The notes beneath the pieces are model-generated. The model saw only the letters and a program-made list of their open reading frames with translations. It was not told the origin of the DNA and did no database searches. Shown one piece after another: positions 10,482-64,000 of a stretch of 64,000 nucleotides of DNA (position 1 is the stretch's first letter; each line of letters starts with the position of its first letter). The stretch is from the NCBI GenBank assembly GCA_964541375.1, contig CAZIPT010000002.1, forward strand, positions 445 to 64,444. The letters run 5' to 3'. This stretch comes from an uncultured Eubacteriales bacterium. GTDB lineage: Bacteria; Actinomycetota; Coriobacteriia; Anaerosomatales; JAAXUF01. The translations under genes and the position numbers were made by a program.

Positions 10482-10498
10482 CTTGGTCGGATCAGGTC

Positions 10499-11215: not shown

Positions 11216-11254
11216 CGGATGCAGTACATCGGCGAACATGAAGGGGAGGTGGCC

Positions 11255-13342: not shown

Positions 13343-13414
13343 CGCACTCGCTTCCGAGCCAATCTCCCGGGGTATGCACCCCTTGGCAGGGCCGCGCCCC
13401 GAGGAGAGGTCGAC

Positions 13415-14602: not shown

Positions 14603-14608
14603 AGAGCT

Positions 14609-32923: not shown

Positions 32924-33108
32924 ACGAGTGCCTCCTACGTTCGGGCACCACCGTTTCGGCGCCCCCATGAGTGTTCGCGCACCATAGTATGCAACCCACA
33001 AGCCATGGGTGCGAGTTGTAACTATTGTTGCTGAAAGAGACTGAAGTCACTTCAGGTCGAGCTGCGACGGCACGGGCTCGGCGTGCGGGTACACTGGATG
33101 CAAAGGAG

Positions 33109-42121: not shown

Positions 42122-42295
42122 CTGCAGGCCTCACTTCGTTGAAACCCCGGACCCCGTCGTGCGACAGTATACGCATGCAGCCCGATGTGAACCCGCCCCA
42201 CGCTCCAGAGAAGCCGTGACTTCCGGCGGGTAGTGCAGATGCAGCCGGCTCGAAAGCGGCTCGGTGGTTCCGGGCCGGAATACCCCCGCGATGCC

Positions 42296-43240: not shown

Positions 43241-43491
43241 GGCAACCCCGAACGGATCTTCCGGCGTGAGTCCACGCGGCGGCGTCAACATGAATCGCTA
43301 ACCCGATTCAGGAACCGCCTGATGATGACGATAAGGGGGATGTCTGCGTCGCCGTACCGAGATTCGCAGAAATCGGGTCTGGGCTGGCTCGACTGCGTGG
43401 GGGCGGTGGCACGAGGCAGCGCGTAGTATAAGTAGTGGGGCACTGGTACAGTGCTTCTCTCAAACTGGACATACAGGGTGTTGGAGGTGCA

Positions 43492-47820: not shown

Positions 47821-47822
47821 GC

Positions 47823-48941
47823 ATGCGGGTCGCCATAGACATCACCAGCTTCCCGGTGGGGGGACAGGAGCGCCAAGTCGCGCAGTTGGCTTTCGGGCTC
47901 GCGTCCCGCGGGCACTCAGTGCTACTCGTTATCAACAAGAGCGGGAGCGCCTTTCGCGACACCCTCGACCATCCGGGCGTCGAGGTCGTCGAGCTCGGGC
48001 GACTGTCCCGATACGACCTGCGTGTTCTGCCCGACATCGTGCGGCGTCTCAGAGCGTTTCGCCCGGATGTCGTATTGTGCGTGGGCTACAACGCGACACT
48101 CTGGGGGAGAATCGCCGCGGTCGTACTCCGGATTCCGGTGGTCACCGCGGAGCATGAGAGCACGCAGATCCGTCGCAAGCTCGACCGGGTTCTGACGAAC
48201 AGGATGCTGGCGCCGTTCACACGTGCTGTTGTTGCGTGCGCTTCGGGCCAAACGCAGTACCTGATCGCCGACGGATGCCCCGCCGACAAGATCGTGGTCA
48301 TCCAGAACGGAGTGGATTCGTCCCAGTTCAAACCACAGAGAGACCGAGGACTCGCGCTGAGGCAGGAGTGGGGTGTGCCGGAGGGCGCCGTCCTCGTGGG
48401 TATCGTTGCAACCCACCGTCCGGAGAAGCGACATGATCGGTTCATCGCACTCATTGAGACCTGTCTGGTCTCCGGTGTCGATATCTACGGAGTCATGATC
48501 GGCGACGGAGATCTTCAGGAGGACAATCAGCGGGCGGCGCTGTCGTCTTCCGCCTCGGATCATCTGATCGTTGCAGGGGACGTGTCAGATATGCCCGCGG
48601 TCTACAACGCCTGCGACGTCGTGGTTCTTGTGTCCGACAGCGTCGAGGTCTTTCCGCTGGCCTTCATCGAGGCCGAGGCCTGCGGCGTCCCCGTTGTAGG
48701 GTTCGACATCGGCGGGGTTGGCGAGACCATGAGAGATGGGGTGACCGGCTACCTCGTGACCGCGGACGACGAGGACCTGCTCGCCCGGCGCGTCGTGGAG
48801 TTGTCGACCGATCCCGCTCTGCGACGCTCAATGGGGGACGCCGGGCGCTCGTGGGTATCGGAGCACCTCACAGTCGAGGTGATGGTTTCCACCTACGAGA
48901 CGCTGCTCAAGGGAGTGGCCCGGGGCGCGTCCGCATCCTAG
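47823..48941 (+). CDS. Glycosyltransferase family 4
   Basis: MRVAIDITSFPVGGQERQVAQLAFGLASRGHSV N-terminus. C-terminal VEVFPLAFIEAEACGVPVVG. Confidence 0.85.
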   Translation: MRVAIDITSFPVGGQERQVAQLAFGLASRGHSVLLVINKSGSAFRDTLDHPGVEVVELGRLSRYDLRVLPDIVRRLRAFRPDVVLCVGYNATLWGRIAAVVLRIPVVTAEHESTQIRRKLDRVLTNRMLAPFTRAVVACASGQTQYLIADGCPADKIVVIQNGVDSSQFKPQRDRGLALRQEWGVPEGAVLVGIVATHRPEKRHDRFIALIETCLVSGVDIYGVMIGDGDLQEDNQRAALSSSASDHLIVAGDVSDMPAVYNACDVVVLVSDSVEVFPLAFIEAEACGVPVVGFDIGGVGETMRDGVTGYLVTADDEDLLARRVVELSTDPALRRSMGDAGRSWVSEHLTVEVMVSTYETLLKGVARGASAS

Positions 48942-50209: not shown

Positions 50210-50524
50210 TTCGGGTCGAAGGCGTGCGTTGCGAACTGTCCAGGCCGTTCTGTGTCGAGCTCGGTGCCAGCCAACGGCCCGAACTAGAGCCGCAACATGA
50301 CGCCTGCAGCCATCGTACAGGCGGCCCGCGGTCATCGAACAGCCCGAGGTTCTCGAGGCAGCCATGAGAGGGGTGCCGCTCGATGGCGGCCCGTGAATGG
50401 CGAGGAGAGGTCTGGCGTCGCGCTGAGCCTGCTGCACTACACTGACAATGGCCGAGTTGGCGCTTGCAGCAAAACGATCTGACCAGTAAGCGATTGAACC
50501 TGCCATCGACCGACCAGAGAGTTG

Positions 50525-52051
50525 ATGCACTTGGGCATGAGACTCGATCCAGCGCAGGCCTTTGACTCCTCGTCACGCGGGGGGAACCTGGCCACGCGCT
50601 CGGTGCGTGGGGGCATCTCGACCCTCGGGGGCCAGCTGCTGCGCACGGGGATCACGCTCGTCGGTACGGTCGTACTTGCCCGGCTGCTGACGCCGTCGGA
50701 CTACGGACTCGTTGCGATGGCCGCCGTGGTCGTTGCGTTGGCTCAGCTGGTCAAGGATGGCGGCCTGGTCACCGCAACGGTTCAGGCCAGCGACATTTCC
50801 GAGAAGCAGATCAGTTCCTTGTTCTGGGTGACTCTGGGCATCAGCACGGTGACTGGCGGAGCGGTCTTGGTTGCGGCGCCGCTCGTTGCCGCCTTCTACA
50901 AGCAGCCGGCCCTCCTGGGCGTGACCGCGGCGCTCTCGCTCACGTTCATCTTCGATGGAATCGCCCTTCAGCAGGAAGCGCTGCTGCGAAGGCACATGCT
51001 TCTCTCATCGGTCGTCGTGTCCGATGTCGTTTCTCAGGCGATGGGCGTCGCGGTGGGCATCACGGCCGCGCTACTGGGCGCCGGCTACTGGTCGCTGGTC
51101 TTTCAGACCATGACCGCGTCCCTCATTTCGAGCGTCATCGTCATCTGGTACTGCCCCTGGATACCCGGCCGATATCGGAGAGGCACAGGATCGGGGCGCA
51201 TGGTCAGGTTCGGCGGGGACATCATGGCGTTCGACATACTCACCTACTTCGGAGACAACACCGACTACCTGCTCATCGGCAAGTTCATGGGCGCTGAGCC
51301 GCTGGGACTCTACACGCGGGCGTTTAACCTGTTCGCACTTCCGATGAGGCAAGTCCGTCGGCCGATGGGGGCGGTCGCGCTCCCGGCGCTCAGTGCGCTG
51401 AGAGAGCAGCCGGAGCGTTTCGCCGCCTACTACCGTCGCTTCGTCGAGGCCTTGGCCCTGCTCAGCGTTCCCATCGCCATCTACTGCTTCATCGAGGTGG
51501 AATTCATCATCCGAGTGCTTCTCGGCGAGCAATGGATGGGGGTCGTGCCCGTCTTTCGGATCTTCGCAGTCGCGGGCCTGTTCCAGGCGGTGGCTTCGAC
51601 GCGGGGCATGATTCTCGTGGCATGTGGGTTCTCGCGTCGCTACTTGCATCTCGGAGTTGTGAGCTGCGTGGTGCGCGTCACGGGCGTGTTGATCGGACTT
51701 CCCTTTGGGATCACAGGCGTCGCCGCGTCGACGACCGCTGCGATCCTGCTCTTCCTACCGCCATCACTGCACTACTTCATGAAGGGCACGCCTGTTCGGC
51801 CAAGGGACTTCTATCGCGCGCTGGCGAGGCCGCTGCTGTTTGGGACCGCCGCGGGCCTCGTTGGCGAAGCCGCGCTGAGGCTCATGCCCGACCGGCTCAC
51901 CACACATGCCGTCGTACTCTGCCTCTTTGTGGGCGTGTATGCCGGACTGGCTTGGTCCAACCGCTCAATCCGCGAGGACGTCCGCCTCATCGCGGGCGCA
52001 TGGCACACGGGCCGGCAGGAAGAGGACGCCAGAGAAGATGACCCGGCTTAG
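50525..52051 (+). CDS. Wzx-type polysaccharide flippase (MOP superfamily)
   Basis: About 12-14 TM segments. N-terminal GGISTLGGQLLRTGITLVGTVVLARLLTPSDYGLVAMA is typical of polysaccharide biosynthesis (PST) proteins. Confidence 0.8.
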   Translation: MHLGMRLDPAQAFDSSSRGGNLATRSVRGGISTLGGQLLRTGITLVGTVVLARLLTPSDYGLVAMAAVVVALAQLVKDGGLVTATVQASDISEKQISSLFWVTLGISTVTGGAVLVAAPLVAAFYKQPALLGVTAALSLTFIFDGIALQQEALLRRHMLLSSVVVSDVVSQAMGVAVGITAALLGAGYWSLVFQTMTASLISSVIVIWYCPWIPGRYRRGTGSGRMVRFGGDIMAFDILTYFGDNTDYLLIGKFMGAEPLGLYTRAFNLFALPMRQVRRPMGAVALPALSALREQPERFAAYYRRFVEALALLSVPIAIYCFIEVEFIIRVLLGEQWMGVVPVFRIFAVAGLFQAVASTRGMILVACGFSRRYLHLGVVSCVVRVTGVLIGLPFGITGVAASTTAAILLFLPPSLHYFMKGTPVRPRDFYRALARPLLFGTAAGLVGEAALRLMPDRLTTHAVVLCLFVGVYAGLAWSNRSIREDVRLIAGAWHTGRQEEDAREDDPA

Positions 52052-52158
52052 ACGATGCGAAGAGGCGCTCCAGTTCCATGTTTGGCCTGGAAGCGGCCTT
52101 GATAGATTCCTGGGCTAGCACGAGATCAAGACGCCGAAGGCCAACCGCATGGTCAGGT

Positions 52159-53304
52159 ATGCTGGTTGGCATTGCGAACCGTCACGACTGGGGATTCCGC
52201 GTGCGCGACAAGTCGATTGATGCCCTGAGAGGTCTAGCGATTCTTCTCGTGGTCGCTGGTCATGCGACCGCCTTGGCGGCGGTCGTCTCCCACGGCGGTC
52301 CGGGTCTGGTCCCGTGGGATACCGGTCTATGGCTGCCGATCGCGACTGTCAACGGACTGCCCTACCTGTTCATCTACTCGTTTCACATGCCCCTGTTTGC
52401 GTTCGTCAGCGGCTACGTTCTCCATCCACCACGCGAGGCCGCGGTTGCGGCGCAGATCATTCGGCGGGCGCGAGCCCTGCTGGTTCCTTTCTTCGCATGG
52501 GCGCTTCTTCGACTGGTCCTCCCGTTCGGCGGAGACGGCGTTGCCTCTAACCAGGGCCTGGTCGGCTCCCTCCTCGACATCCTGCTCGGCCGCACAGGCT
52601 TGTGGTATCTCTACGCGCTCTTCATCTGCTCGGTGGTTCTGATCTGTCTGCTGAAGCTGCGAGGCATGCGCTGGCTCTTGCCTGTCTCGGCCGTGGCTGC
52701 TGCGGTCTGTGCCGCCAGTCTATGGATCCCGGACATCCTCTGGCTTGCCGAGACCCTCTGGATCTATCCGTTCGTCGTTCTCGGCTTCATGATCAGCCCG
52801 CTTAATGCCGAGTTCGTCAGTCATCGGTGGTCCCTCTTTGGAGCATGTTTGGCCGCCTATGTGGCGCTCTTCTATTTCCAGTCTCCTCTTGGCACGCTGG
52901 AACCACCCATTCGGCGTATCTCAGAGGCAGCGTTGCGCGGTACGGGATTGTCTCTCGGGTGGGTAGTCTGGCTGTTTCCGTACCTCTGCGCGACCGCAGC
53001 AGTATTGGCGCTGTATAGCCTCTACATCCGGCGAAGCGGGTGGGCGATCGACGCGCAGGCCTGGCTCGGCCGTAGAAGCCTCGGGATATACGCGATGCAC
53101 GCTTCTGTGATTCGCGTGCTCCTTAGAGTCGGCGTTACGAATGTCCTGGTTCTGATCCTCTCGGCGACCACCGTCGCGGTTCTGCTCACCCTTGTGCTTG
53201 AGCGCATACCGGGGGTAAACATGGTCTTCCTCGGCCAGAAGGGTTCTCGGCGAGAAGCACCCGACGGCCTAGACGGGCCTGTCGGTCTGTCTGGCAGCGC
53301 CTAG
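52159..53304 (+). CDS. Acyltransferase family 3 membrane O-acyltransferase
   Basis: SIDALRGLAILLVVAGH motif and about 10 TM segments. The alternative start is GTG 52201. Confidence 0.75.
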   Translation: MLVGIANRHDWGFRVRDKSIDALRGLAILLVVAGHATALAAVVSHGGPGLVPWDTGLWLPIATVNGLPYLFIYSFHMPLFAFVSGYVLHPPREAAVAAQIIRRARALLVPFFAWALLRLVLPFGGDGVASNQGLVGSLLDILLGRTGLWYLYALFICSVVLICLLKLRGMRWLLPVSAVAAAVCAASLWIPDILWLAETLWIYPFVVLGFMISPLNAEFVSHRWSLFGACLAAYVALFYFQSPLGTLEPPIRRISEAALRGTGLSLGWVVWLFPYLCATAAVLALYSLYIRRSGWAIDAQAWLGRRSLGIYAMHASVIRVLLRVGVTNVLVLILSATTVAVLLTLVLERIPGVNMVFLGQKGSRREAPDGLDGPVGLSGSA

Positions 53305-53455
53305 GCGCTGCCCCATGCTCTCCGCGTACCAGTTTCCAAGCGCTCCAGGGGACGGGTCCAGTCCAAGCGCGCTTGCCGATTTGCCGGGACGGGCACGAGC
53401 CTCATCACTCTGCGACTTCATGCCGGACCAGATCACTACACATGCGTGACACCGT

Positions 53456-54346
53456 TCAGGTCTCCGTCCCACGGCGAAGCGTTCTGTACGCCTTGGTCAG
53501 AAGCGGACTCGTCTCAACGTAGTCATCGCGGGCCTCACAGAGGTGGCGTCTCAAAGCCACTCTGGCGTTCGAGGGTCCTGGGAGCGGCGGGGGGACGTCC
53601 AGCGGCCCGATGGGGGCGGCCCTGGTTCCTGCATACTGCTCCGCGATAGTGGCCAGCGATGTCCACCTGACGTTGCCCAGATCGTTTATCCAGTCGACGA
53701 GTTCAGTTATCGCGCCGTACCCGTTCCGGAAGAGGTGGTGGTGTTCCACAACGATGATCGGACGTCCCGCGGCAACGTCTTCCACGAACTGAGATCGTTC
53801 GCTGGGGTAGCGACGCTGCAGCAGCGGAAGACCGTGATACATCCTCGTGGCCGGCAGCTGACACTCGCTGGCGGGGGGCGTCTCCCCGTCGGTCGCCTGA
53901 AGATGGCAGGAAACCGCAGCTAGAAAGCCCTGGTCCTTGAGTGCTCGCATGGCCTCGCATGAGTAGTGATCGTGCGGGAAGACCATGACGGGGTCGTAGG
54001 CCAGACCGGTCAGGCGTTTGTGTTCTTCCATTCTCCACAGGGCGGTATGCGAAAGAGCGCTGAGCTGCTGGTAGTCACTGATCGCGAACTCGTCCAGGGT
54101 GTGGTTGCATCCGTGCACGCACAGCGCGAAGTGGTCGGGGTTCTCGGCGAAGAGCCGTACGGTCTTCGGGTTGCTGCGCTTGTAGTTCCACGGGATGAAG
54201 GCGATCTCCGTGAAGAAGCGGTGGGCCTTCATCTCTTGGAGGAGTTCTTCGTAGTTGAAACAGCCGTAGTTTGGCCTGAGCATTGGGTCGTCGATGATCA
54301 GGCAGGCCAGTGTCTCGCTCGTACCGTCGGCGTCGCGCGCGGTCAC
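53456..54346 (-). CDS. Deacetylase-like protein (DUF2334 / CE4-like?), uncertain
   Basis: LIIDDP...VHGCNH...VVEHHH His/Asp-rich motifs. It overlaps the upstream LbH gene by 4 nt. The assignment is from weak recollection only. Confidence 0.4.
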   Translation of the reverse strand: MTARDADGTSETLACLIIDDPMLRPNYGCFNYEELLQEMKAHRFFTEIAFIPWNYKRSNPKTVRLFAENPDHFALCVHGCNHTLDEFAISDYQQLSALSHTALWRMEEHKRLTGLAYDPVMVFPHDHYSCEAMRALKDQGFLAAVSCHLQATDGETPPASECQLPATRMYHGLPLLQRRYPSERSQFVEDVAAGRPIIVVEHHHLFRNGYGAITELVDWINDLGNVRWTSLATIAEQYAGTRAAPIGPLDVPPPLPGPSNARVALRRHLCEARDDYVETSPLLTKAYRTLRRGTET

Positions 54347-54849
54347 AGTGGCACCAAGCCCCGCTTGAACTCATCGTACTCACCGTCGAGGGTCAGAGGC
54401 ACTGTCACCCGGGCGATGGGCTTTGCGGGAGACCCTGACACGAACGTGAAAGGCGGGACATCACGGGAAACGACTGAACCGGCGCCGACCACAGACCCCT
54501 CTCCGAGAGTCAATGTGCGCTCGTTGGCTGCGACGACGCAGTTCGGACCGATCCAAACGTTGGGCCCGATGACGATTCTTCCAGGCTTGCGAAGATGGCA
54601 GGTGATGATCGACCGCAAGACGAGCTGTGCACCGTCGTGAATCTCGACCAACTCCGGAAACTCGTTCTCAAGGTAGACCTGATCACCAATGAACACCGTA
54701 CCGTGGATTTTCACCCCTCTGAGCTTGTGCAGGAAGGGTCTGAAGCTCGTGGCTCCCGGGGCGAACTGGGCTATGATGTGGAGGAAGCGATTTGCAGCTC
54801 TCCGGGCAAGCGACTTTCGCATGCTGCTCTCAGAATCCCCCTCTTGCAT
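54343..54849 (-). CDS. Left-handed beta-helix (hexapeptide-repeat) acyltransferase, WbpD/WbbJ-like
   Basis: Hexapeptide repeats (IHGTVFIGDQVYLE, IGPNVWIGPNCVV, LGEGSVVGAGSVV). Confidence 0.8.
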   Translation of the reverse strand: MQEGDSESSMRKSLARRAANRFLHIIAQFAPGATSFRPFLHKLRGVKIHGTVFIGDQVYLENEFPELVEIHDGAQLVLRSIITCHLRKPGRIVIGPNVWIGPNCVVAANERTLTLGEGSVVGAGSVVSRDVPPFTFVSGSPAKPIARVTVPLTLDGEYDEFKRGLVPL

Positions 54850-54924
54850 CGCTTTGAGCTGCCACTAGTGTACATGACTGGTCTCGTGAGATGACCTGAC
54901 TTGAGCCCGAGAGGTTGATGGCGG

Positions 54925-56760
54925 ATGAGGGCCGGTGACCTGGACAAAGCGCTGTCAGCGAACTCACTTGTCGAGGTTCGCGAGTCGCTTCGCCCGAGGC
55001 GCGGACCCTTGGCGTTTTCCGATCTCAAGCGGCTGACGCAGCATATGCGATCCCTCGACGATCAACTCAACCCGGTCAGGGTCGCCATTGTTCGAACGTA
55101 CACGACTGAGCTACTGCGCCCCTACTGGGAGTTCGAGAGCCTGTTGAACGGTCTTGCTCTCACCTTGCACGAGGCGCCGTACGGCATGGTCGTTCAAGAG
55201 GCGATACCTGACGGCGGCATAGCCTCCTTCGAGCCCGACACGGTCTTCCTCATGCTGCAGTGGGGTGATCTTGACCCTCGGCTTGCCGGAAGCGTCAGCG
55301 AGTTCACCGATGAGGAGCGGCGTGCCATCGTGCAGTCCGCTGCCGATTCGGCGGTCAGTCTGCTGTCGGCCTACCGCCACGTCGTCAGCTGCCCGCTGGT
55401 TCTGTCCGTGTTGCCGAGTCTCCTCCCGGTCGAACTGGGGATGTGCGACGTTTCCGCACCTTTGTCGGAGCGTCTTCTCCACGGTGAGTTGCTCCGAGCC
55501 GTCGCCGTTGCGTTGCGTGAATCGGTCCCCGACGCGTACCTCGCAGATATCGACGAAGTGGTGACCGAGGTCGGCCGGGAAGACATGTTCGACCTTCGGA
55601 TGTGGCACCAGGGCAGGTTTCCCTTCACTGTCCACGGTGCCCAGGCTGTGGTGCGATCCCTCGCCCGGTACCTCGTGCTCATGACCTCAGCCAGAGTCAA
55701 ATGCGTTGTGGTGGATGCCGACAACACACTCTGGGGCGGCATCGTCGGCGAGGACGGCGTCGAAGGAATCGCGCTGGGGCCCGAGTATCCCGGCAATGTG
55801 TACGTGACTTTCCAGCGCAGACTTGCGGAACTCCGGCACCGGGGGCTCTTGCTTGGCCTGTGCAGCAAGAACAACCCTGATGACGTACGCGAAGTACTGA
55901 GTGACCACCCGAGCCAGGTTCTGCGCGAGGACGACTTCGCGGCGATCCGCGCGAACTGGGAGGACAAATCGGAGAACCTGGCCGCGATGGCTGCTGAACT
56001 CAGGCTGGGGCTGGATTCGTTCATGTTCATCGACGACAGCCCTCAGGAGTGCCTCGCCATGCGCACCCGACTGCCCGAGGTGACCACGGTCTGTCTGCCA
56101 AGCCACATCGACGATCTGCCCTTCCTCGTCGACGACCTGCCTCAGCTCCAAGTGCTGAGTCTCACCGCCGAGGACAGCGAGCGCGCTGACATGTATGTGA
56201 GCGAGCGCCATCGCCGCGAGATCGCCTCGACGGCCCGCACGGTGGAAGAGTACCTGTCGACGCTGAAGATGAAGATGTCCGTCGGCTTCGACGACCTCTC
56301 TCGAGTGCCCCGGCTCGCCCAGCTGACCCAGAAGACCAACCAATTCAATCTCACGACGAAGCGCTACTCCGAGTCAACGATGGCGCAGCTCGTCGAGGAC
56401 CCAAGCGTTCTGGTCGCCCATTTCGCGCTTTCAGACGTCTTTGGTGAGAGCGGAATCGTAGGTCTGGGCGTTGTCCGACTCTCGCCCCCCGTTGCGGAGT
56501 TCGACACCTTCCTTCTCTCGTGTCGGGTGATCGGTCGCACCGCGGAGACAGCTTTCCTCAATGAGATTCTGGCTCGCCTCTCTGATTTGGGGGTCCGGAC
56601 GGTCCACGGTGCCTATACCCCCACCCCCAAGAACGCTCTGGCCGCGAGCTTCTGGACCGATCAGGGATTCTCGGAGGACAGCCCGGGCTGCTTTGAGCTC
56701 GATCTGACGACGTGGAAGCCCTCGCCGACTCCAGCCATCGCCGTCATTGCCCCTGGCTAG
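54925..56760 (+). CDS. FkbH-like HAD-IIIC family protein
   Basis: HAD motif I VVDADNTLWGG, then LCSKN and FIDDSP. The C-terminal LLSCRVIGR motif is characteristic of FkbH-like proteins. Confidence 0.8.
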   Translation: MRAGDLDKALSANSLVEVRESLRPRRGPLAFSDLKRLTQHMRSLDDQLNPVRVAIVRTYTTELLRPYWEFESLLNGLALTLHEAPYGMVVQEAIPDGGIASFEPDTVFLMLQWGDLDPRLAGSVSEFTDEERRAIVQSAADSAVSLLSAYRHVVSCPLVLSVLPSLLPVELGMCDVSAPLSERLLHGELLRAVAVALRESVPDAYLADIDEVVTEVGREDMFDLRMWHQGRFPFTVHGAQAVVRSLARYLVLMTSARVKCVVVDADNTLWGGIVGEDGVEGIALGPEYPGNVYVTFQRRLAELRHRGLLLGLCSKNNPDDVREVLSDHPSQVLREDDFAAIRANWEDKSENLAAMAAELRLGLDSFMFIDDSPQECLAMRTRLPEVTTVCLPSHIDDLPFLVDDLPQLQVLSLTAEDSERADMYVSERHRREIASTARTVEEYLSTLKMKMSVGFDDLSRVPRLAQLTQKTNQFNLTTKRYSESTMAQLVEDPSVLVAHFALSDVFGESGIVGLGVVRLSPPVAEFDTFLLSCRVIGRTAETAFLNEILARLSDLGVRTVHGAYTPTPKNALAASFWTDQGFSEDSPGCFELDLTTWKPSPTPAIAVIAPG

Positions 56761-56869
56761 AGGTCGCGCGACAATGGATGGCCGCCGGTGGCGCGGCGAG
56801 GCACGGCCATGACCAGCCAGAAGACCGGTTTCCCTGGGCCTTTGCCTAGGCACGTTGGAAGGGACTCGC

Positions 56870-57112
56870 ATGAGTAGTAGCGATCGCGCTCGCGAACTGA
56901 TCGCGTCGACCTTTGACCTGCCGGTCGAAGAGGTGACGCTCGAAGGCACGGACTCAACCGTGCCCGGATGGGACTCGTTCGGACATGTCACCCTGATGAT
57001 GGCCTTGGAGGAGGCCGTCGGGGAGACTATCGACGCCGCCGAGATGGGCAAGCTGACTTCGGTCGCGGCAATCGCCGACTTCCTCGGGAAGAGCAGTTCT
57101 GACTCGAGGTAA
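56870..57112 (+). CDS. Acyl/peptidyl carrier protein
   Basis: 80 aa. The phosphopantetheine-attachment-type motif GWDSFGHVTLM is flanked by helices. Confidence 0.75.
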   Translation: MSSSDRARELIASTFDLPVEEVTLEGTDSTVPGWDSFGHVTLMMALEEAVGETIDAAEMGKLTSVAAIADFLGKSSSDSR

Positions 57113-57164
57113 CGGGCGACAGGCTCTAGGAGCGCACCTGAATCGCGAATCTGAGGGGGTCTCG

Positions 57165-58862
57165 TTGGGCGAGTACCGGCTAGATGTGAGACTCGAGAAT
57201 CCTGGACTGTGGACCCGGGTCGACGGGGTCGCGGCCCGCGGGCGCGCGTTCCTAGACGGTCGTCTGCTGGATGCACACGCAATCGCCGAGCTGTTCAGTG
57301 GCCAAGGAAGCGCGGACCAGGTGATTGACCTCGCACGAAGTCTCACCGGCCACTACGCGGTACTGAGCGACGCCGAGGCTCTTCCCTACGCGATCGTGGA
57401 CTCAGCGCGGAGTTTCCCGCTCTTCTTCAACGAGACACCATCGGCGCTTGTCGTCTCGGACACCCCCTATGCCACACTTCAGGCCGGTGAATCGGCCGCC
57501 CCGCGGGAAGACTCCTTGGTCGACTTCGCCTACTGCGGCTACGTGTCGGGAGCCCGGACGCTCGTCGGTGAAGTCAAGCAGGTGCCGGCCGGGACGATCC
57601 TCCTTGTTGGCGGGGGGGAGAACCGCGCGCGTGGTGCGAAGCTGGTACCGTTCGACGTGTTCGTCCCGTCTATCGAGGGAGATCCGGGCAAGAGCGACTC
57701 GGAGCTTCACGCGCTCATGCGCGAATCGATGTCCGCGGCCGTGGATCGTCTCATCACGATCGCCGGTGGAAGAACCATCGCACTGGCGTTGAGCGGCGGC
57801 TACGACAGCAGGCTGCTCGCGATGCTGCTCAAGGAGAAGGGCTACGACGCAGTCCTCTGCTTCTGCTATGGCAAGGACGGGAACTCCGAGTCCGTGATCA
57901 GTCGGCCCGTCGCCGAGGAGCTGGGGTTCCCTTGGGAGTTCATCCGCTTCGACGAGTCGACTTGGGCGTCCTGGGTTCGTTCGAGTGAGTGGCAAGAGTA
58001 TGTGCAGATGGCGCACCTGGGGGTCTCGCTGCCGCTCGTACAGGCGTGGGGCGGCGTCCTGGGGCTTCGGTCCGCCGGAGTGCTGCCTGACGACGCGGTG
58101 TTCGTACCGGGCATGCTGGGCGGGGGATGTCTCGCAGGCAAGTACTCGCGCCGCGACCTGCTCGACCACGCACCCGGAGACCGTCTGCGTGCGGCCCACG
58201 CCATCGTCAACGACCTCTACAACCTCTGGTGGGATGAGCCTGCGCGCTCGTTGCACCTCGAGTCGGCTCCGATGCGGATTGCAGACGATCTTGCGGTGCC
58301 GGGGTTGGGGGAGTGGGAGGCCGACTGCTCGGCGTATGAGTACTGGCGCTTCAGCCAGTACAACCTGGGGTTCCTCGCCAACGATTCTCGTGTGTACGAG
58401 TACTGGGGATATGACTGGTGGATGCCGTTCGCGGACAAGGCTCACGTCTCGATCTGGCAGCACGTGCCCTATGCGAGGCGTATCGGCATGGGTCTCTACG
58501 CTGACTTCGTCACCGACTACATGCCTGACGCACTCGGAGTCCGCGACGACAGCGTGTTGCGGCTCAAGCGAGGCAGCGGCTCGGCGGACCTCATCGAGGC
58601 GAAGACCATCGCGAGCGTGCTGAGACGGTTTGCCAGGAATCTCGACCGGGGCGGCCACGCGCGTGCGATCCGAGACCGGCTCCGCGGGCCGCAGGCCAAG
58701 CTGGACAATGCGTACTACTCTCATCCGCTGGGGTGGTGGGGTGTTGTCGACAAGTCTCAGTTCGATCGCCAATTCACGGGAGCCGAGAGTATCTACTCTT
58801 TCATGACTCAACAGATGCTTGCCGACCGATACGGGTGGTCGAGGGAGAGGGTCGCCGAGTGA
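57165..58862 (+). CDS. Asparagine-synthetase-B-like PP-loop ATP pyrophosphatase lacking the N-terminal catalytic Cys
   Basis: TTG start. PP-loop is IALALSGGYDSRLLAML. The N-terminus (M)GEYRLDV... lacks the MCG nucleophile. Confidence 0.75.
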   Translation: MGEYRLDVRLENPGLWTRVDGVAARGRAFLDGRLLDAHAIAELFSGQGSADQVIDLARSLTGHYAVLSDAEALPYAIVDSARSFPLFFNETPSALVVSDTPYATLQAGESAAPREDSLVDFAYCGYVSGARTLVGEVKQVPAGTILLVGGGENRARGAKLVPFDVFVPSIEGDPGKSDSELHALMRESMSAAVDRLITIAGGRTIALALSGGYDSRLLAMLLKEKGYDAVLCFCYGKDGNSESVISRPVAEELGFPWEFIRFDESTWASWVRSSEWQEYVQMAHLGVSLPLVQAWGGVLGLRSAGVLPDDAVFVPGMLGGGCLAGKYSRRDLLDHAPGDRLRAAHAIVNDLYNLWWDEPARSLHLESAPMRIADDLAVPGLGEWEADCSAYEYWRFSQYNLGFLANDSRVYEYWGYDWWMPFADKAHVSIWQHVPYARRIGMGLYADFVTDYMPDALGVRDDSVLRLKRGSGSADLIEAKTIASVLRRFARNLDRGGHARAIRDRLRGPQAKLDNAYYSHPLGWWGVVDKSQFDRQFTGAESIYSFMTQQMLADRYGWSRERVAE

Positions 58863-58939
58863 TCCGAACGGTCGCGGCGGCCGCCTCGCGTTCGACAAGA
58901 GGGCATCGTGGTGGATCGAACACCTTTGAGGAGCGCTAA

Positions 58940-60049
58940 GTGCGTATCGTGCATATCGGCAGCAAAGGTATCCCGTCGACAGGCGGCACTGAACGCGTCG
59001 TCGAGGCCATCGCCGTGCGGCATGCGCGCGCCCAAGATGTCACCGTGTACGGCAGGGCGGACGTATGTTCCACGGGGACGCATCGCAACGTCAGGGTGAT
59101 TGCGTTCCGAGTGCCTCGCAACAAGTTCCTTGGACCTATCTGGCTTGTATTGGCCTCGACACTGCACGCACTGTTCACCCAGAAAGCCAGTCTTGCGCAC
59201 GTCCACGGCGCCGAGAACGCCTTTGTCCTGCCGTTGCTGAAGACTCGCTTCCCCGTCGTCACCACCAACCACGGGCCGGCCTACGCGCGAGCGAAGTGGG
59301 GTCGGCTCGCGAGCGCACTCATCCGGTCGACCGAGCGCGGCTCGGTTGTGCGAGCAGACGCCGCCACAGCCGTTGCCGAGCGCGATGCCCTTGAGCTCTC
59401 GGAACGCTACGGGGTAGAGGTGCTGAGCATCCCCAACGGGGTCGATGAGGACACTCGTCCCGACGACGCCGCGGCCCAGAAGATGCTCGCCGAACTCGGG
59501 CTTGAGCGCGGCCGGTTCGCGATGTTTGCAGCTGCGCGCGTCGACCCCACGAAGGGCTGCCTCGACCTGTTGGGTGCGTGGAGGATTCTGGGCTGCCCGA
59601 TGCCGCTTCTGGTGGTCGGCGATCTGTGGCACGCGCCGGGCCACGAGGCTGAGCTGCGCGAAGCCGCCGACGGGATGGCCGTGCATTTCGTCCCACGGAT
59701 CGGGGACAAGGCGCTTGTCTTTGGATTGGTCGCAGCCGCGGATGTCTTCGTCTTTCCTTCCACGGTCGAGGCGATGTCGATGATGCTCCTGGAGGCGACA
59801 GCTCTGAGTGTTCCCGTACTGGCGAGCGATATTCCGGAGAACACGGACGTTCTGCCCGACAGAGAGTGGTTCTTCACCTCGGGCGACGCGTCGGATCTGG
59901 CTCGGGCATATGCGGCCCTGAAGCTCGAGCCAGACGACGCGGTGCGCGCGCGTTGTGAAAGCCGAGCGAGCTACGTTCGAAGCCGCTACTCCTGGGATCG
60001 CATCGCTGATGAATACCAGGTCGTATACGATTGTGTAGCGCGTGCGTAA
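58940..60049 (+). CDS. Glycosyltransferase family 4
   Basis: GTG start with GAGGAG upstream. N-terminus is (V)RIVHIGSKGIPSTGGTERVVEAIA. C-terminus is VEAMSMMLLEATALSVPVLASD. Confidence 0.8.
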   Translation: MRIVHIGSKGIPSTGGTERVVEAIAVRHARAQDVTVYGRADVCSTGTHRNVRVIAFRVPRNKFLGPIWLVLASTLHALFTQKASLAHVHGAENAFVLPLLKTRFPVVTTNHGPAYARAKWGRLASALIRSTERGSVVRADAATAVAERDALELSERYGVEVLSIPNGVDEDTRPDDAAAQKMLAELGLERGRFAMFAAARVDPTKGCLDLLGAWRILGCPMPLLVVGDLWHAPGHEAELREAADGMAVHFVPRIGDKALVFGLVAAADVFVFPSTVEAMSMMLLEATALSVPVLASDIPENTDVLPDREWFFTSGDASDLARAYAALKLEPDDAVRARCESRASYVRSRYSWDRIADEYQVVYDCVARA

Positions 60050-60159
60050 GGGCGCCAACACATCGCGTTGGCACAGACACGTCGGGGAGGGCGCAAGCGG
60101 AGACGATGCCGTTTCCGGGTCGCGCGTCGTCACTCCGACGAAGGACAAGGGCGGGAACC

Positions 60160-61266
60160 GTGCACGTTTCATTCGTTGACCTGAAGGCGCAGGCTGAGTC
60201 GCTCGGCGGGACTTACGCCTCGTTACTGGACTCCATCGTCGGCCGCGCTGCCTATACCATGGGCCCGGAGCTCGCAGCGTTCGAGCGCGAGTTCGCGAGC
60301 TACTGCTCTTGCGAGCACGCTATCGGCGTCAGCAGTGGCACCGACGCGCTCAAGCTCGCGTACCTCGCAGCCGGGGTCGGCCCTGGCGACGAGGTCGTCG
60401 TGCCGGTCAACACCTTCATCGCCACTGCCGAGGCGGTCTCTCACGTGGGGGCGAAGCCGGTCTTCGTCGACTGCCTCGCCGAGACCGCGAACATCGACCC
60501 AGGACTCGTGGAGGCGGCGCTGACCGATCGCACACGGGCGATAGTCCCCGTTCACCTGTACGGTCAGCCGGCCGACATGGACCCGATTCGCGAGATCGCG
60601 AACCGACGCGGGATACCGGTGATCGAGGATGCCTGCCAGGCGCACGGCGCCGAGTACCGGGGCGGGCGGGCGGGGAGCCTGGGAGCGGCCGCAGCGTTCA
60701 GCTTCTATCCCGGCAAGAACCTGGGGGCTTTGGGCGACGGTGGAGCTGTCGTGACCAACGATGCCGACCTGGCCGAGAAGATTCGACTCCTTCGAAACCA
60801 CGGACAGCAAGACAAGTACACGCACAGCGTCGTTGGCTACTGCGACCGCCTCCACAACCTACAGGCGGCGTTCCTCTCGGCGAAGCTGCCACACATGGAG
60901 GGCTGGAACGACGCCCGCCGAGAGACCGCCGCTCGCTACGATGCGTTGCTCGCAGAGGTTCCGGGTGTCGGTCGGCTCTCCACGATCGCCGGCGTTTCGC
61001 ACGTGCACCATCTGTACGTCGTGTTGGTCGATGACCGCGACCGGGTTCGTGACGCGCTCGCGGAGGCCGGTATCGAGACGGGCGTCCACTATCCGGTCCC
61101 GCTCCACTTGACCCCGGCGTACCGCTCGTTGGGGTACGGGCCCGGCGACTTCCCAGTGGCTGAGGCGCTCGCAAGACGCGCGCTGTCCCTTCCGATGCAT
61201 CCCCATCTCTCAGGGGAACAGACCAACTACGTGGTCAAACAGCTCGAAGCGGCGCTCGAGCGGTAG
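60160..61266 (+). CDS. DegT/DnrJ/EryC1/StrS-family PLP sugar aminotransferase (WbpE-like)
   Basis: VSFVDLKAQ..., GVSSGTDAL, VIEDACQAHGA and SFYPGKNLGALGDGG (PLP Lys) motifs. The start is assumed to be GTG 60160. Confidence 0.85.
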   Translation: MHVSFVDLKAQAESLGGTYASLLDSIVGRAAYTMGPELAAFEREFASYCSCEHAIGVSSGTDALKLAYLAAGVGPGDEVVVPVNTFIATAEAVSHVGAKPVFVDCLAETANIDPGLVEAALTDRTRAIVPVHLYGQPADMDPIREIANRRGIPVIEDACQAHGAEYRGGRAGSLGAAAAFSFYPGKNLGALGDGGAVVTNDADLAEKIRLLRNHGQQDKYTHSVVGYCDRLHNLQAAFLSAKLPHMEGWNDARRETAARYDALLAEVPGVGRLSTIAGVSHVHHLYVVLVDDRDRVRDALAEAGIETGVHYPVPLHLTPAYRSLGYGPGDFPVAEALARRALSLPMHPHLSGEQTNYVVKQLEAALER

Positions 61267-61509
61267 CCCGCAACCAGCCTCCAAGACTCCACTGTAGTTG
61301 CGGGGGCCTCCTGCCGATACAAACATTGTGAGCGCCGACACAGGATGCTCGCGAGCGATGTGAGTTGGCGGGGCCATTCTCCCGTCAAATGCGCATCGGT
61401 CGCGTTAACCAGCCTGAGCTGTCTGCGCACTGAGATTGACTGGTTTCACAGGTATACTGTCTCCTCGCACTCTGTCTTCAGGACTAGCGCAGAGTGCGCC
61501 CGGGCCTTG

Positions 61510-63027
61510 ATGACGGGCTCGGGGGAACACGAGGGAGGGCGTGGCGGAGCCTTGGTCGACGCGACTCTGAGAGCTGGGACCAGCGGTCGCCGTATGGCGA
61601 GGGTTTCGGCGCGCACCAGACTCGGATGGGCCAGCGTGGGGTCCGACGTCCTTGCACTGTTCGGAGCCTATCTGTTTGCCGGCGCGGTACGCTCCCTGGT
61701 GCCATCGGCTGCGAGCCTGTCTGCGGTCCCCTTCCAGCTCGACTGGTCGATTGCGATATTCGCGGTCGTCGTGGTGGCCGTCTTCTATGTCTCGGGGCTC
61801 TACGAGCCTGAGGCCTACGTGTCGCGTCCTCTGCATCTGTGGATCCTGTTGAAGGCGTCGTTCATCGCGTTCATGGTGTCTGCGCTGACGGCCTACCTGG
61901 TCCGCTCCGCCACCTTCGATGGATCACGGATCGTCCTGCTGCTCACATTCGCCGTGTTCGTGGTGGCCGCGGCCGCGCTTCGCTTCGGCGCTCTTGATGG
62001 TGTGTGCGGCGCCTGGCTTCGTCAGCGCCGGCCCGTGTCACTGCTTGTTGGTGATTCGGAGATCGCACGCAAGCTGGCCGAGCATCTCGGCGATCTTCGC
62101 GGGTTTGATCGCATGGTGCGAGTGGATGCTGCCACGACAGACTTGGGCGACGAGGCTCTCGGTGCCGCACTTGAAGGTTCGTGGCCCAGGGACGCCGAGG
62201 TAGCCTCGGTCTTCATCGATGCCACAAGCCTGCCGCCGCGGGACGTCTACAGGACTGCAGCCGCGTCTCACTCATTGGGCGCCGAGGTGTATCTGGTCTC
62301 GGGGCTGTTCAAGGCGGTCCAGGGCAACGGGCTTCTTAGTAAGTTGTTTGACGTGCCGGTGGTGCGTCTGCACCGGAGCATGGAGTCCGCGAAGCCGTAT
62401 CCGCTGAAGCGAACGCTCGACGTCGTCGGTTCCGCACTTCTGCTCCTCGTTTTCTCGCCCGTCATCCTCGTGCTGGGGATCTTGATTCGCCTGACCTCGC
62501 CCGGGCCCGTCTTCTACAAGCAGACTCGCATAGGCCGTAACGGCGTCCCGTTCGAGTTCCTCAAGCTACGCTCGATGGTCATGGACGGTGACCAGTGCAT
62601 CCATTCGGAGTACGTGCGCGCCTTCATGAACGGAACCGCCGAGGCGGTCGCCATAGGCGGGGGCAACGACGCGATATTCAAGATGGTCGACGATCCCAGA
62701 ATCACGCCCGTCGGTAGGTTCGTACGCAAGTACTCTCTCGATGAGCTGCCGCAGTTCTGGAACGTCTTTCGCGGCGATATGAGCCTCGTCGGCCCGCGAC
62801 CGCCGCTGCCCTACGAGGTGAACGAGTACGATGAGTGGGATTCGCTGCGCCTGGTGGTGCCTTCGGGAATCACCGGCCTGTGGCAGGTCGAAGGGCGCAG
62901 CCGCGTGTCGTTTGACGAGATGATCCTTCAGGATCTGGTCTACGCTCAGAACATGCGGCTGCTGGTGGACATCGAGCTGTGCCTGAAGACACTGCCTGCC
63001 ACGCTGCTGGGCGGCGGAGGGGGCTAG
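61510..63027 (+). CDS. Polyprenyl-phosphate sugar-phosphate transferase (WbaP/EpsB-type bacterial sugar transferase)
   Basis: Four N-terminal TM segments. The C-terminal domain reads KRTLDVVGSALLLLVFSPVILVLGILIRLTSPGPVFYKQTRIGRNGVPFEFLKLRSM...DELPQFWNVFRGDMSLVGPRP. The start is uncertain (61510 or 61594). Confidence 0.8.
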   Translation: MTGSGEHEGGRGGALVDATLRAGTSGRRMARVSARTRLGWASVGSDVLALFGAYLFAGAVRSLVPSAASLSAVPFQLDWSIAIFAVVVVAVFYVSGLYEPEAYVSRPLHLWILLKASFIAFMVSALTAYLVRSATFDGSRIVLLLTFAVFVVAAAALRFGALDGVCGAWLRQRRPVSLLVGDSEIARKLAEHLGDLRGFDRMVRVDAATTDLGDEALGAALEGSWPRDAEVASVFIDATSLPPRDVYRTAAASHSLGAEVYLVSGLFKAVQGNGLLSKLFDVPVVRLHRSMESAKPYPLKRTLDVVGSALLLLVFSPVILVLGILIRLTSPGPVFYKQTRIGRNGVPFEFLKLRSMVMDGDQCIHSEYVRAFMNGTAEAVAIGGGNDAIFKMVDDPRITPVGRFVRKYSLDELPQFWNVFRGDMSLVGPRPPLPYEVNEYDEWDSLRLVVPSGITGLWQVEGRSRVSFDEMILQDLVYAQNMRLLVDIELCLKTLPATLLGGGGG

Positions 63028-63069
63028 ATCCGCGCGGGGGCCATGGCCCTTGGGCGACGAGGGGGATGC

Positions 63070-64000
63070 ATGCCGAGGATCACAATCGGGCTGATCGGGT
63101 ACGGCTACTGGGGCCCGAACCTACTGCGCAACTATATGGAGCAGGAGTCGGCCAACCCCAAGTGGGTCTGCGATATTAGCGCGGAGCGACTTGAGACGGC
63201 CGCCGCCCGGTATCCATCCGTGCGCACCACGACTTCTGTCGAAGAAGTCATCGGCGACCCCGAGGTCGACGCTGTTCTGATCGCGACTCCGATCTCGACG
63301 CATCATTCGCTGGCGATGCAGGCCCCCGCCGCGGGCAAGCCCGTTTTCGTCGAAAAGCCGCCTTCCACGAGCGTTGCAGAGTGTGACGAGATGTGCGCCG
63401 CCGCGGACGCCGCCGGTCTCGTTCTCATGGTCGGCCATACCTTCGTGTACAGCCCGCCTGTGCGCTCCGTGAAGCAGATACTCGACTCCGGGGAGCTGGG
63501 AGACGTCTACTTCATCACGTGCTCGCGTGTGAACCTCGGCCTGCATCAGAAGGATGTCAGTGTCGTCTGGGATCTGGCTCCCCATGACCTCTCGATTCTG
63601 GAGTACTGGCTCGGCGAGGAGCCTGTTTCGGTTCAGGCGATGGGCCGGAGCTGCATCAACAACGGTATCCCGGATGTCGCGTTCCTCAACGTGCGCTATG
63701 CGACCGGGATCATCGCGGAGCTGCAGGTCTCTTGGCTCTCCCCGGTGAAGCTGCGCCGAACCATCATCGTCGGCAGCAAGAAGATGCTTATGTACGACGA
63801 CACGGAGAGCGTCGAGAAGGTGAAGATCTTCGACCAGGGCGTGGACTACAAGGATCCCGAGACCTTCGGAGAATTCCAGCTTTCGTATCGGACGGGGGAC
63901 ATTCACGCTCCCCGGATAGAGAACAAGGAGCCTCTGAGGGTGGAGGCGGGGCATTTCCTCGAGTGTGTGGCGAGCGGTCTTCGGCCCATGACGGACGGCT
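63070..64000 (+). CDS. Gfo/Idh/MocA-family NAD-dependent sugar oxidoreductase (WbpB-like), 3' end outside the window
   Basis: My own translation gives MPRITIGLIGYGYWGPNLLRNY...AVLIATPISTHHSLAMQAPAAGKPVFVEKP...MVGHTFVYSP. The frame is open to the window end, which is why the ORF track lacks it. The track's 63121-63954 minus ORF is its shadow. Confidence 0.8.
   Translation, partial: MPRITIGLIGYGYWGPNLLRNYMEQESANPKWVCDISAERLETAAARYPSVRTTTSVEEVIGDPEVDAVLIATPISTHHSLAMQAPAAGKPVFVEKPPSTSVAECDEMCAAADAAGLVLMVGHTFVYSPPVRSVKQILDSGELGDVYFITCSRVNLGLHQKDVSVVWDLAPHDLSILEYWLGEEPVSVQAMGRSCINNGIPDVAFLNVRYATGIIAELQVSWLSPVKLRRTIIVGSKKMLMYDDTESVEKVKIFDQGVDYKDPETFGEFQLSYRTGDIHAPRIENKEPLRVEAGHFLECVASGLRPMTDG

Follow-up and report, generated by a model that had tools for sequence, protein, structure and literature searches.

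The 64,000-nucleotide stretch analysed here (the window; contig CAZIPT010000002.1 of an uncultured Eubacteriales bacterium, positions 445 to 64,444) carries a Wzx/Wzy-type polysaccharide locus, assigned by Pfam and NCBIfam annotation to window positions 36-64 kb. Within this locus, three consecutive plus-strand genes encode an FkbH-like enzyme, an acyl carrier protein (ACP) and a homologue of asparagine synthetase B (AsnB) that has no N-terminal Cys. Two minus-strand genes beside them encode an LbH (hexapeptide) acyltransferase and a protein predicted to have the fold of CE4 deacetylases. We read the region as a mosaic of two separable sugar-tailoring functions, and we put the chances of this reading at about even. 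Function A would be a four-gene 'acyl-swap' cassette (53456-57112) comprising the CE4-like, LbH, FkbH-like and ACP genes. Function B would be that of the AsnB-like protein (57165-58862).

The evidence for treating the two functions as separable comes from gene neighbourhoods. The closest relative of the FkbH-like enzyme, with 71% identity, is found in locus L005 and two sibling contigs. There the block runs LbH (minus strand), FkbH-like, ACP and a 293-aa CE4-like gene (minus strand), an order rearranged with respect to the window, and the LbH, ACP and CE4-like proteins are 77%, 68% and 70% identical to those of the window. L005 has no AsnB-like gene. The two closest relatives of the AsnB-like protein (43-46% identity) are also in glycan loci, and neither FkbH nor ACP genes occur near them. 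Among 79 genomic loci with AsnB-like genes, each surveyed out to at most 10 kb in both directions, only two (L021 and L029) have an FkbH-like gene. On these neighbourhoods we rejected a conserved FkbH/ACP/AsnB-like three-gene operon. The first-pass annotation of this DNA had taken the three plus-strand genes as one dedicated pathway, which L005, the nearest AsnB-like relatives and the co-occurrence survey that it had itself suggested do not bear out, and it had not recognised the minus-strand LbH and CE4-like genes as partners.

The FkbH-like enzyme and its carrier protein

The order of the three genes and the motifs quoted for them in the first-pass annotation were confirmed in the reading frames, as were its assignments of an FkbH-like HAD-IIIC protein, an 80-aa carrier protein and a Cys-less AsnB homologue with an intact PP-loop. 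Its start coordinate for the set, 54343, was wrong: 54343-54849 is the minus-strand LbH gene, and upstream of 54919 the FkbH frame is not open.

The FkbH-like gene (54925-56760, plus strand) encodes 611 aa. Residues 258-584 match the TIGR01686 'FkbH domain' model with 282.6 bits, against a cut-off of 146.65, and the HAD-IIIC model TIGR01681 is matched with 67 bits. The protein consists of an N-terminal BF1531-type domain (residues ~1-255), a HAD-IIIC phosphatase domain and a C-terminal domain with Cys533 in an S-C-R sequence; the motifs DADNT and LSCRVIGR are at residues 264-268 and 531-538. PDB entry 3SLR (BF1531, from structural genomics) matches residues 197-397 with an E value of 1.5e-36. 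The N-terminal domain of ~255 aa is an addition to the canonical short FkbH, and homologues of this long form number more than 6,800.

We aligned the window protein with five other FkbH sequences: a short form from a Bacillus thuringiensis zwittermicin-type cluster of non-ribosomal peptide synthetase (NRPS) and polyketide synthase (PKS) genes, a short form from a Streptomyces NRPS-type cluster with ketosynthase III (KS-III), ACP and acyl-CoA dehydrogenase genes, the long forms of Sinorhizobium meliloti pSymB and L005, and a Ralstonia PKS fusion. Residues D264, D266, T268, S314, K348 and D370 (alignment positions D10, D12, T14, S60, K94 and D116) are invariant, and Cys533 is present in all six sequences. 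From prior knowledge of OzmB and FkbH, we take Cys533 to be the catalytic acyl-enzyme Cys.

The carrier reading frame opens with TTG 56855. We place the start at ATG 56870 because this codon has the upstream ribosome-binding site GGAAGGGA and agrees with the start of the homologue, which gives a protein of 80 aa (56870-57112, plus strand). The Pfam PP-binding model is matched with 21.5 bits (cut-off 20.8). Ser36, in the sequence GWDSFGH, aligns with the phosphopantetheinylated Ser36 of Escherichia coli AcpP and is the predicted phosphopantetheine attachment site. Loss of this Ser, or of the Asp or Cys of the FkbH-like protein, had been named in the first-pass annotation as counting against its proposal; all three are in place on alignment. 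Five of six aligned FkbH-associated carriers, all five beside a long-form FkbH, have a W-D/E-S-L/F-x-H motif where G/A-D-S-L is usual, and the FkbH-like loader may recognise the Trp before D/E-S.

The window protein resembles the canonical loaders (FkbH, OzmB, ZmaN and the tetronate homologues) in its HAD-IIIC domain, its C-terminal Cys domain, its full set of catalytic residues and its neighbouring dedicated ACP. By analogy, it would load a glyceryl unit onto the ACP with 1,3-bisphosphoglycerate as donor. It differs from them in the extra BF1531-type (3SLR) domain and in its glycan context, which has none of the hydroxy-/methoxymalonyl-ACP dehydrogenase or methyltransferase genes that would follow, and no KS-III. 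Among the genes annotated from 17.7 to 64 kb we found no FkbK/FkbI-type dehydrogenase, FkbG methyltransferase, ketosynthase (KS), KS-III, acyltransferase (AT) or NRPS genes. The contrasting case is L174, in which KS-III, ACP and acyl-CoA dehydrogenase genes accompany FkbH. A PKS-type use of the FkbH domain, unlike the glycan context, is also seen in L171, on the Ralstonia solanacearum megaplasmid (319-14995): the domain is inside a 1,179-aa fusion protein, and the neighbouring genes on its two sides code for an AMP-binding enzyme, an acyl-CoA dehydrogenase, an ACP and a large acyltransferase-domain protein.

General literature searches for FkbH in polysaccharide loci returned polyketide papers only; a search by Campylobacter jejuni gene names led to a mention of cj1302, an fkbH-domain gene in the flagellin glycosylation locus of that species (PMC7099621). 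C. jejuni 11168, whose glycosylation locus holds cj1302, makes a dimethylglyceric-acid derivative of pseudaminic acid. One strain in which cj1302 is a pseudogene lacks dimethylglyceric-acid sugars, and so does a second strain with no reported cj1302 defect (PMC7099621). The gene tied to the modification by experiment is cj1295 (PMC3068675). The likeness to the window is that of an FkbH-domain gene, as judged for cj1302 from its description, in a glycan-modification locus whose glycan carries a glycerate-derived acyl group; moreover, the L005 block is followed by PseC-like and other nonulosonic-acid-type genes. The difference is that the connection of cj1302 with the sugar is a correlation in one paper, and we count it as weak support for glycerate. 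A glyceroyl-type N-acyl group is also present in Pse5Am7Gra of Tannerella forsythia, for which the genes are unknown and the origin of the N-glyceroyl group has been called 'a major challenge' (PMC5378307).

Elsewhere, long-form FkbH and ACP genes are accompanied by GNAT acyltransferases (L008, L175 and the locus of P0035), by AAC(3)-like N-acyltransferases (L021 and L176) or, on S. meliloti pSymB, by an MBOAT membrane acyltransferase. These loci often also hold CE4 deacetylases, VOC proteins, methyltransferases and DegT. On pSymB (L172, 4198-10077) the genes encode a VOC protein, the MBOAT protein, a 409-aa protein, the ACP and the long-form FkbH; the 409-aa protein is labelled 'TonB-dependent receptor', which is doubtful given its size and context, and the gene arrangement is reminiscent of Dlt and AlgI, whose target polymers are acylated outside the cytoplasm.

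The LbH and CE4-like partners

The genes for the LbH acyltransferase (54343-54849, minus strand, 168 aa) and the CE4-like protein (53456-54346, minus strand, 296 aa) overlap by 4 nt. A divergent intergenic region of 75 bp (54850-54924) separates this pair from the FkbH operon, and the divergent arrangement of LbH and FkbH genes around it is also present in L005. No sigma-70-type consensus was found in 54850-54924, and a promoter and terminator scan of 53300-59200 gave nothing beyond shuffle expectation.

The LbH protein matches Pfam Hexapep with 33 bits. Its NCBIfam matches are to sugar and other N-/O-acetyltransferases, all far below their cut-offs, and the match to the LpxA model is weak (E ~1e-5) and also far below cut-off. 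LpxA and LpxD are LbH enzymes that use acyl-ACP donors, and in 3-amino lipid A they act together with GnnA and GnnB, the Gfo/Idh/MocA and DegT proteins that provide the UDP-GlcNAc3N-type acceptor. The window has the same combination of an LbH protein, an ACP, an oxidoreductase best matching UDP-GlcNAc 3-dehydrogenase and a DegT protein. By this analogy, the LbH enzyme of the window could use acyl-ACP. It differs in its length of 168 aa and its weak LpxA match, and its donor would carry a C3 hydroxyacyl rather than a fatty acyl group.

Sequence comparison was uninformative for the 296-aa protein. There was no Pfam match even at E<=10 and no NCBIfam match, neither Polysacc_deac_1 nor VimE (NF053580) was matched, and the single match from the PDB sequence search, RpfC, was spurious. 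Fold prediction was therefore required. The AlphaFold (AF2) model has a predicted local distance difference test (pLDDT) score of 82, and Foldseek places it closest to CE4 deacetylases (chitin deacetylase, ArnD and PgdA among them; E 1e-6 to 1e-4, template modelling score ~0.5). The family comprises ~300 homologue clusters of ~60% identity, nearly all named 'hypothetical', and is invariant at Asp19-Asp20 and His78-x3-His82, which correspond to the CE4 base and metal motifs. We predict from the model and these motifs that the protein is a CE4-fold de-N-acylase-like enzyme.

We surveyed 80 metagenome loci with CE4-like genes, many of them on short contigs. An LbH gene is present in half of them (40/80), mostly directly upstream with ends overlapping by a few bases; in loci L091-L139 this partner has 160 aa. 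FkbH-like genes occur in four of the 80 (L117, L141, L145 and L155), where FkbH, with or without a detectable ACP, LbH and CE4-like genes recur in yet other arrangements. Since most of the pairs have no FkbH nearby, the LbH and CE4-like proteins must have a function of their own. In L140-L170, distant CE4-like relatives (~40% identity) are embedded in open reading frames (ORFs) of ~500-1,100 aa, and in L141, L145 and L155 the FkbH and LbH genes precede such large ORFs.

Another carrier-loading system takes the place of FkbH and ACP in L010 (7001-11960), an exosortase/PEP-CTERM-type locus with PrsK/PrsR-like regulators. Here the CE4-like and LbH pair adjoins two DltA-like adenylating enzymes that flank a 92-aa DltC-like carrier, and no FkbH/ACP genes are present in that place. 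Such a neighbourhood points to decoration with aminoacyl, not glyceroyl, groups by the same transferase pair and, because the loader is exchanged, to acceptance by the pair of carrier-borne acyl donors from different loaders. We infer that FkbH and ACP form a portable acyl-donor cassette and that the CE4-like and LbH proteins form a 'remove acetyl, add another acyl' unit.

The Cys-less AsnB-like protein

The AsnB-like gene (57165-58862, plus strand, 565 aa) starts at TTG 57165 with GAGGGGG upstream, and the N-terminus of its product is M-G-E-Y-R. SGGYDS of the PP-loop is at residues 210-215, and SGGYDSR is invariant in the family. The first 30 residues contain no Cys, and an N-terminal Cys is missing from all 31 homologues examined. 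The Pfam Asn_synthase model is matched with 25 bits (cut-off 21), in the PP-loop region only. Scores for characterised subfamilies are below cut-off: 30.4 bits against 267.1 for the Gln-dependent AsnB model TIGR01536, 15.3 against 816.9 for the WbpS-type model TIGR03108 and 25.4 against 300 for the lasso-peptide cyclase NF033561-type model. No lasso precursor or B-protein genes were found beside the AsnB-like gene.

When a profile of the 31 homologues was compared with the PDB, the best match was beta-lactam synthetase (E 2e-7), followed by carbapenam synthetase and asparagine synthetases. The AF2 model of the window protein (pLDDT 90) aligns along both of its domains with TsnB9, AsnB, beta-lactam synthetase and CarA in Foldseek, with E ~1e-13 and ~550-590 alignment columns. 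Profile search, model and sequence motifs together place the protein firmly in the AsnB superfamily, with its two-domain fold of an Ntn-like (N-terminal nucleophile-like) and a synthetase domain. An acetamidino-forming PP-loop enzyme of the WbpG/PseA type was considered and rejected, there being no NCBIfam match to these enzymes and the full AsnB two-domain fold being present instead. Beta-lactam synthetase, carbapenam synthetase and TsnB9, the best profile and fold matches, share with the window protein the two-domain AsnB fold, the intact PP-loop and a degenerate N-terminal domain without the Cys nucleophile. The sequence similarity to them is mainly around the PP-loop (E ~1e-7), however, and the context in the window is glycan assembly and not beta-lactam or hydroxamate synthesis.

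The family is not rare, as a word-indexed search that returned 31 relatives had made it appear. An exhaustive profile search gave 2,549 representative clusters at E<=1e-30. The apparent rarity was an artefact of the word index, so an indexed search alone is unfit for judging rarity. A genome scan located at least 487 loci in Bacteria and Archaea, including Methanosarcina, Natronococcus, Bacillota and Betaproteobacteria, and found no relative of more than 33% identity in the reference genomes.

The neighbours of AsnB-like genes in the 79 loci are those of glycan assembly and sugar modification. GT4 glycosyltransferase genes are near 39 of the 79, and Wzx flippase genes near 21. UDP-sugar 6-dehydrogenases were found in 19-20 of the loci, DegT aminotransferases in 13, initiating transferases in 11, Gfo/Idh/MocA oxidoreductases in 10, and LbH acyltransferases and genuine Cys-containing AsnB in eight each. 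A link to a pyruvyl transferase, suggested by the two closest relatives, was not upheld: the annotated families that commonly neighbour AsnB-like genes in the 79 loci do not include PS_pyruv_trans, and it was not found in the annotated part of the window either. With the CE4-like loci as a control set of glycan loci, the density of 6-dehydrogenase genes is ~4-fold higher near AsnB-like genes (1.5 per 100 kb, as compared with 0.39). Because these genes are more frequent nearby than in the control, the carboxylate of a uronic acid suggests itself as the substrate. Judged from its sequence family and neighbours, the AsnB-like enzyme is probably a sugar-carboxylate amide ligase with an independent tailoring function.

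A proposed route, its rivals and the surrounding locus

In the route that we propose, the 3-dehydrogenase-like oxidoreductase and the DegT aminotransferase encoded downstream would make a diamino sugar. The long-form FkbH-like enzyme would take a phosphorylated three-carbon acyl donor, which by analogy with canonical FkbH would be 1,3-bisphosphoglycerate, and hold the acyl group on Cys533; its HAD domain would remove the phosphate, and the resulting glyceryl group would be loaded onto Ser36 of the ACP. The CE4-fold enzyme would strip an N-acetyl group from an amino sugar, and the LbH enzyme would move the ACP-bound acyl to a free sugar amine, either the one newly uncovered or the 3-amino group introduced by the 3-dehydrogenase-like enzyme and DegT. 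In Function B, the AsnB-fold enzyme would adenylate a carboxylate, C6 of a hexuronic acid within the same sugar or repeat unit being the most probable one, and would couple it as an amide to ammonia or some other amine, with no glutaminase step involved. The joint product could be something like an N-glyceroyl diamino-uronamide. We infer the substrates and products, N- rather than O-acylation, the order of steps and the uronic-acid nature of the sugar from the observed gene order, intact catalytic motifs, folds and co-occurrence patterns.

This route would be a variant of the Wbp/Vim route. In Porphyromonas gingivalis, the linking sugar 2-N-seryl-3-N-acetylglucuronamide is made with WbpA/B/E/D and three further enzymes: VimE, of the CE4 family, carries out the deacetylation, the acyltransferase VimA adds the new acyl group, and WbpS, an amidotransferase of the AsnB family, forms the amide (PMC7468200). 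Common to the proposed route and that of P. gingivalis and T. forsythia (PMC7468200) are a 2,3-diamino sugar acid formed through Gfo/Idh/MocA and DegT proteins, removal of an N-acetyl group by a CE4 enzyme, re-acylation with an unusual acyl group and amidation of a carboxylate by an AsnB-superfamily enzyme. In the window, however, the CE4-like protein falls outside the VimE model, re-acylation would be the task of an LbH protein and not of a VimA-type enzyme, the proposed acyl donor is an FkbH-made ACP thioester and not an amino acid, and the amidating enzyme has neither the glutaminase Cys nor a TIGR03108 match. In addition, we see neither WbpA nor WbpD homologues in the window, which ends inside the oxidoreductase gene. 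The statement in the first-pass annotation that no characterised pathway matches this gene combination needs qualifying: the overall logic fits Wbp/Vim, and cj1302 had already been noted in C. jejuni (PMC7099621).

It is because related loci reproduce the layout that the window looks like a route of the Wbp/Vim type. In L021, from Rivularia, the order is WbpA-like, WbpB-like, LbH (WbpD-like), DegT (WbpE-like), Wzx, AsnB-like, AAC(3)-like N-acyltransferase, methyltransferase, FkbH-like, ACP and VimE-like, the last being a UDP-GlcNAc3NAcA deacetylase (NF053580, E 2e-57). L003 has Wzx, AsnB-like, a 377-aa acyltransferase-like protein and a VimE-like deacetylase, with Gfo/Idh/MocA, LbH and DegT further on. 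In L176, a Gln-dependent AsnB and a UDP-sugar dehydrogenase are ~5 kb from FkbH, ACP, an AAC(3)-like protein, a CE4 deacetylase and a methyltransferase.

Several observations weigh against the two-function mosaic. No UDP-sugar 6-dehydrogenase gene was found in the window, and the contig ends ~550 bp past it, so that a uronic acid is only a candidate substrate here; the enrichment of 6-dehydrogenases near AsnB-like genes rests on small counts (20 and 2). The nearest family models of the LbH protein, all far below cut-off, are acetyl-CoA-dependent N-/O-acetyltransferases. Most LbH and CE4-like pairs, as noted above, are without FkbH, many of them on short contigs. Long-form FkbH carries a further N-terminal domain to which no function has been assigned, and its acyl cargo may be something other than glycerate. 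Lastly, nothing resembling a terminator separates the ACP gene from the AsnB-like gene immediately after it, and in L029 as well an AsnB-like gene adjoins FkbH and ACP.

This last arrangement favours an integrated three-gene pathway in which the AsnB-like enzyme acts directly with FkbH and ACP. The AsnB-like enzyme might adenylate and amidate a carboxylate on an ACP-tethered glycerate-derived unit, as proposed for OxyD and malonamate, or might link the glycerate-derived unit to the sugar through an amide bond. The AsnB-like gene starts 52 nt past the ACP stop, with its own ribosome-binding site, and is two genes from FkbH in L021; the Gln-dependent AsnB of L176 is 5 kb from FkbH and ACP. We nevertheless consider such a pathway distinctly unlikely, given the absence of an AsnB-like gene from L005, the absence of FkbH and ACP near the closest AsnB-like relatives and the co-occurrence in two of 79 loci. 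What is more, a free carboxylate for adenylation is missing from glyceryl-S-ACP, the annotated part of the window has no FkbK-/FkbI-type dehydrogenase that might create one, and we know of no AsnB-family enzyme that uses a thioester donor. Of the earlier proposal of an ACP-delivered, glycerate-type decoration on an amino sugar, what stands is that this is still the best reading of FkbH and ACP; the membership of the AsnB-like gene in the same pathway does not.

The acyl group itself and its destination could also be other than we propose. It is unlikely, although with some real chance of being correct, that the long-form FkbH loads a different small acyl group, its N-terminal domain altering the substrate, or that it is a phosphatase only. 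Residues 1-255 form an additional domain with no assigned function, VOC/glyoxalase-like and methyltransferase genes often accompany long-form FkbH and suggest further acyl chemistry, and we found no assay of any long-form FkbH in the literature searched. Yet long and short forms share every one of the HAD residues and the acyl-accepting Cys, an ACP gene is beside or near the FkbH-like gene in most contexts examined, and glyceroyl and di-O-methylglyceroyl groups do occur on bacterial glycans; the C. jejuni strain with the cj1302 pseudogene lacks the dimethylglyceric-acid sugars, although so does the second strain, which has the gene. We think it unlikely, too, that another transferase, such as the AT3 protein encoded at 52078-53304, delivers the ACP-bound acyl for O-acylation of the finished polymer, with LbH and CE4-like proteins as an unrelated acetyl-CoA-dependent unit. 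The AT3 gene is ~150 nt from the end of the cassette, O-acetyltransferases are among the best family matches of the LbH protein, most of the LbH and CE4-like pairs occur without FkbH, and on S. meliloti pSymB FkbH and ACP adjoin an MBOAT gene in a Dlt-like layout. These points are countered by L005, in which the four genes stay together though rearranged and no AT3 gene was called on the contig, by the four further loci with FkbH, LbH and CE4-like genes, and by L010, in which the CE4-like and LbH pair is beside another carrier-loading system. It is highly improbable that FkbH and ACP serve polyketide, tetronate or lipid synthesis instead of a glycan. Every characterised FkbH enzyme does come from polyketide, NRPS or tetronate pathways, and FkbH domains are found in PKS/NRPS contexts on plasmids, but the partner genes of such pathways were not found from 17.7 to 64 kb, the genes lie within an uninterrupted string of glycan genes, and their closest relatives are also in glycan loci.

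The genes around the cassette agree with the glycan-locus context given in the first-pass annotation. The window has a GC content of ~64%. The locus begins with genes for a DUF4012 protein (36178-38061, minus strand), a GHL15/cadherin-like protein, a GT4 glycosyltransferase (40895-42121, minus strand), a Polysacc_deac_1 deacetylase (42233-43240) and a Wzz/BY-kinase (43435-45081), all by family annotation. Several further glycosyltransferases, including GT4, precede the Wzx flippase (50522-52051, plus strand; Polysacc_synt_3, 275 bits). A 515-aa ORF in this interval (46273-47820) has no family match and is possibly a Wzy polymerase. It overlaps the listed GT4 ORF 47469-48941 by ~350 nt; the GT4 domains of the latter begin at about residue 130, so its true start is probably later, and proper gene calling is needed. 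The AT3 membrane acyltransferase (52078-53304, plus strand; Acyl_transf_3, 111 bits) is directly upstream of the cassette.

Downstream of the AsnB-like gene, the plus strand encodes a GT4 glycosyltransferase (58940-60049; Glyco_transf_4 and Glycos_transf_1 in Pfam), a DegT/DnrJ/EryC1 sugar aminotransferase (60031-61266; PF01041, 416.9 bits), an initiating polyprenyl-phosphate glycosylphosphotransferase (61345-63027; Bac_transf, 198 bits; TIGR03025, 317.8 bits, above cut-off) and a Gfo/Idh/MocA oxidoreductase cut off by the window end (63028-64000; Pfam GFO_IDH_MocA). The best family match of the oxidoreductase is UDP-GlcNAc 3-dehydrogenase (NF040723, E 1.2e-44, 153 bits), below the equivalog cut-off of 450. 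It would catalyse the first step towards a 3-amino sugar, and the DegT protein would supply the amino group. Gaps between the plus-strand genes from 54925 on are at most 110 nt, and no terminator-like sites were found between them in the scanned 53300-59200.

Two groups of genes in the window are unrelated to the glycan locus or precede it. Between 23538 and 30833 are genes for a 1,157-aa molybdopterin-oxidoreductase-like protein, a 4Fe-4S protein, a multihaem cytochrome c with paired CXXCH motifs and a 522-aa protein without Pfam match, which may form an alternative-complex-III-like or other respiratory module. Between this cluster and the glycan locus, at 31730-33960, a gene for a radical SAM/SPASM-domain protein (minus strand) adjoins one for an aldo/keto reductase.

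N-glyceroyl, di-O-methylglyceroyl and amide-linked substituents of glycans shape antigenicity, phage recognition and immune evasion, and their genetic basis is largely unassigned. The locus and the comparative data point to three large uncharacterised families: long-form FkbH with its ACP, a CE4-fold family without a Pfam model that is paired with a small LbH protein, and the Cys-less AsnB-fold proteins. The sugar-tailoring logic is already known from Wbp/Vim, and modelled on it the three families have a testable division of labour; what differs is the carrier-borne, probably glyceroyl, acyl group and the amidating enzyme that lacks a glutaminase. We suggest, tentatively and as a possibility that falls well short of being probable, that long-form FkbH and ACP are a portable cassette and the missing general source of glyceroyl and O-methylglyceroyl groups on bacterial glycans, and that the Cys-less AsnB-fold family represents unrecognised ATP-dependent sugar-carboxylate amide ligases. 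The cargo of the cassette may be passed to interchangeable transferases (LbH, GNAT, AAC(3)-like and MBOAT), often after a CE4 'acyl swap', and the ligases might attach amines other than ammonia, for example amino acids, to uronic acids. If this is true, the labels 'HAD-IIIC family phosphatase', 'hypothetical protein' and 'asparagine synthase-related' in polysaccharide loci would become readable as predictions of glycan chemistry.

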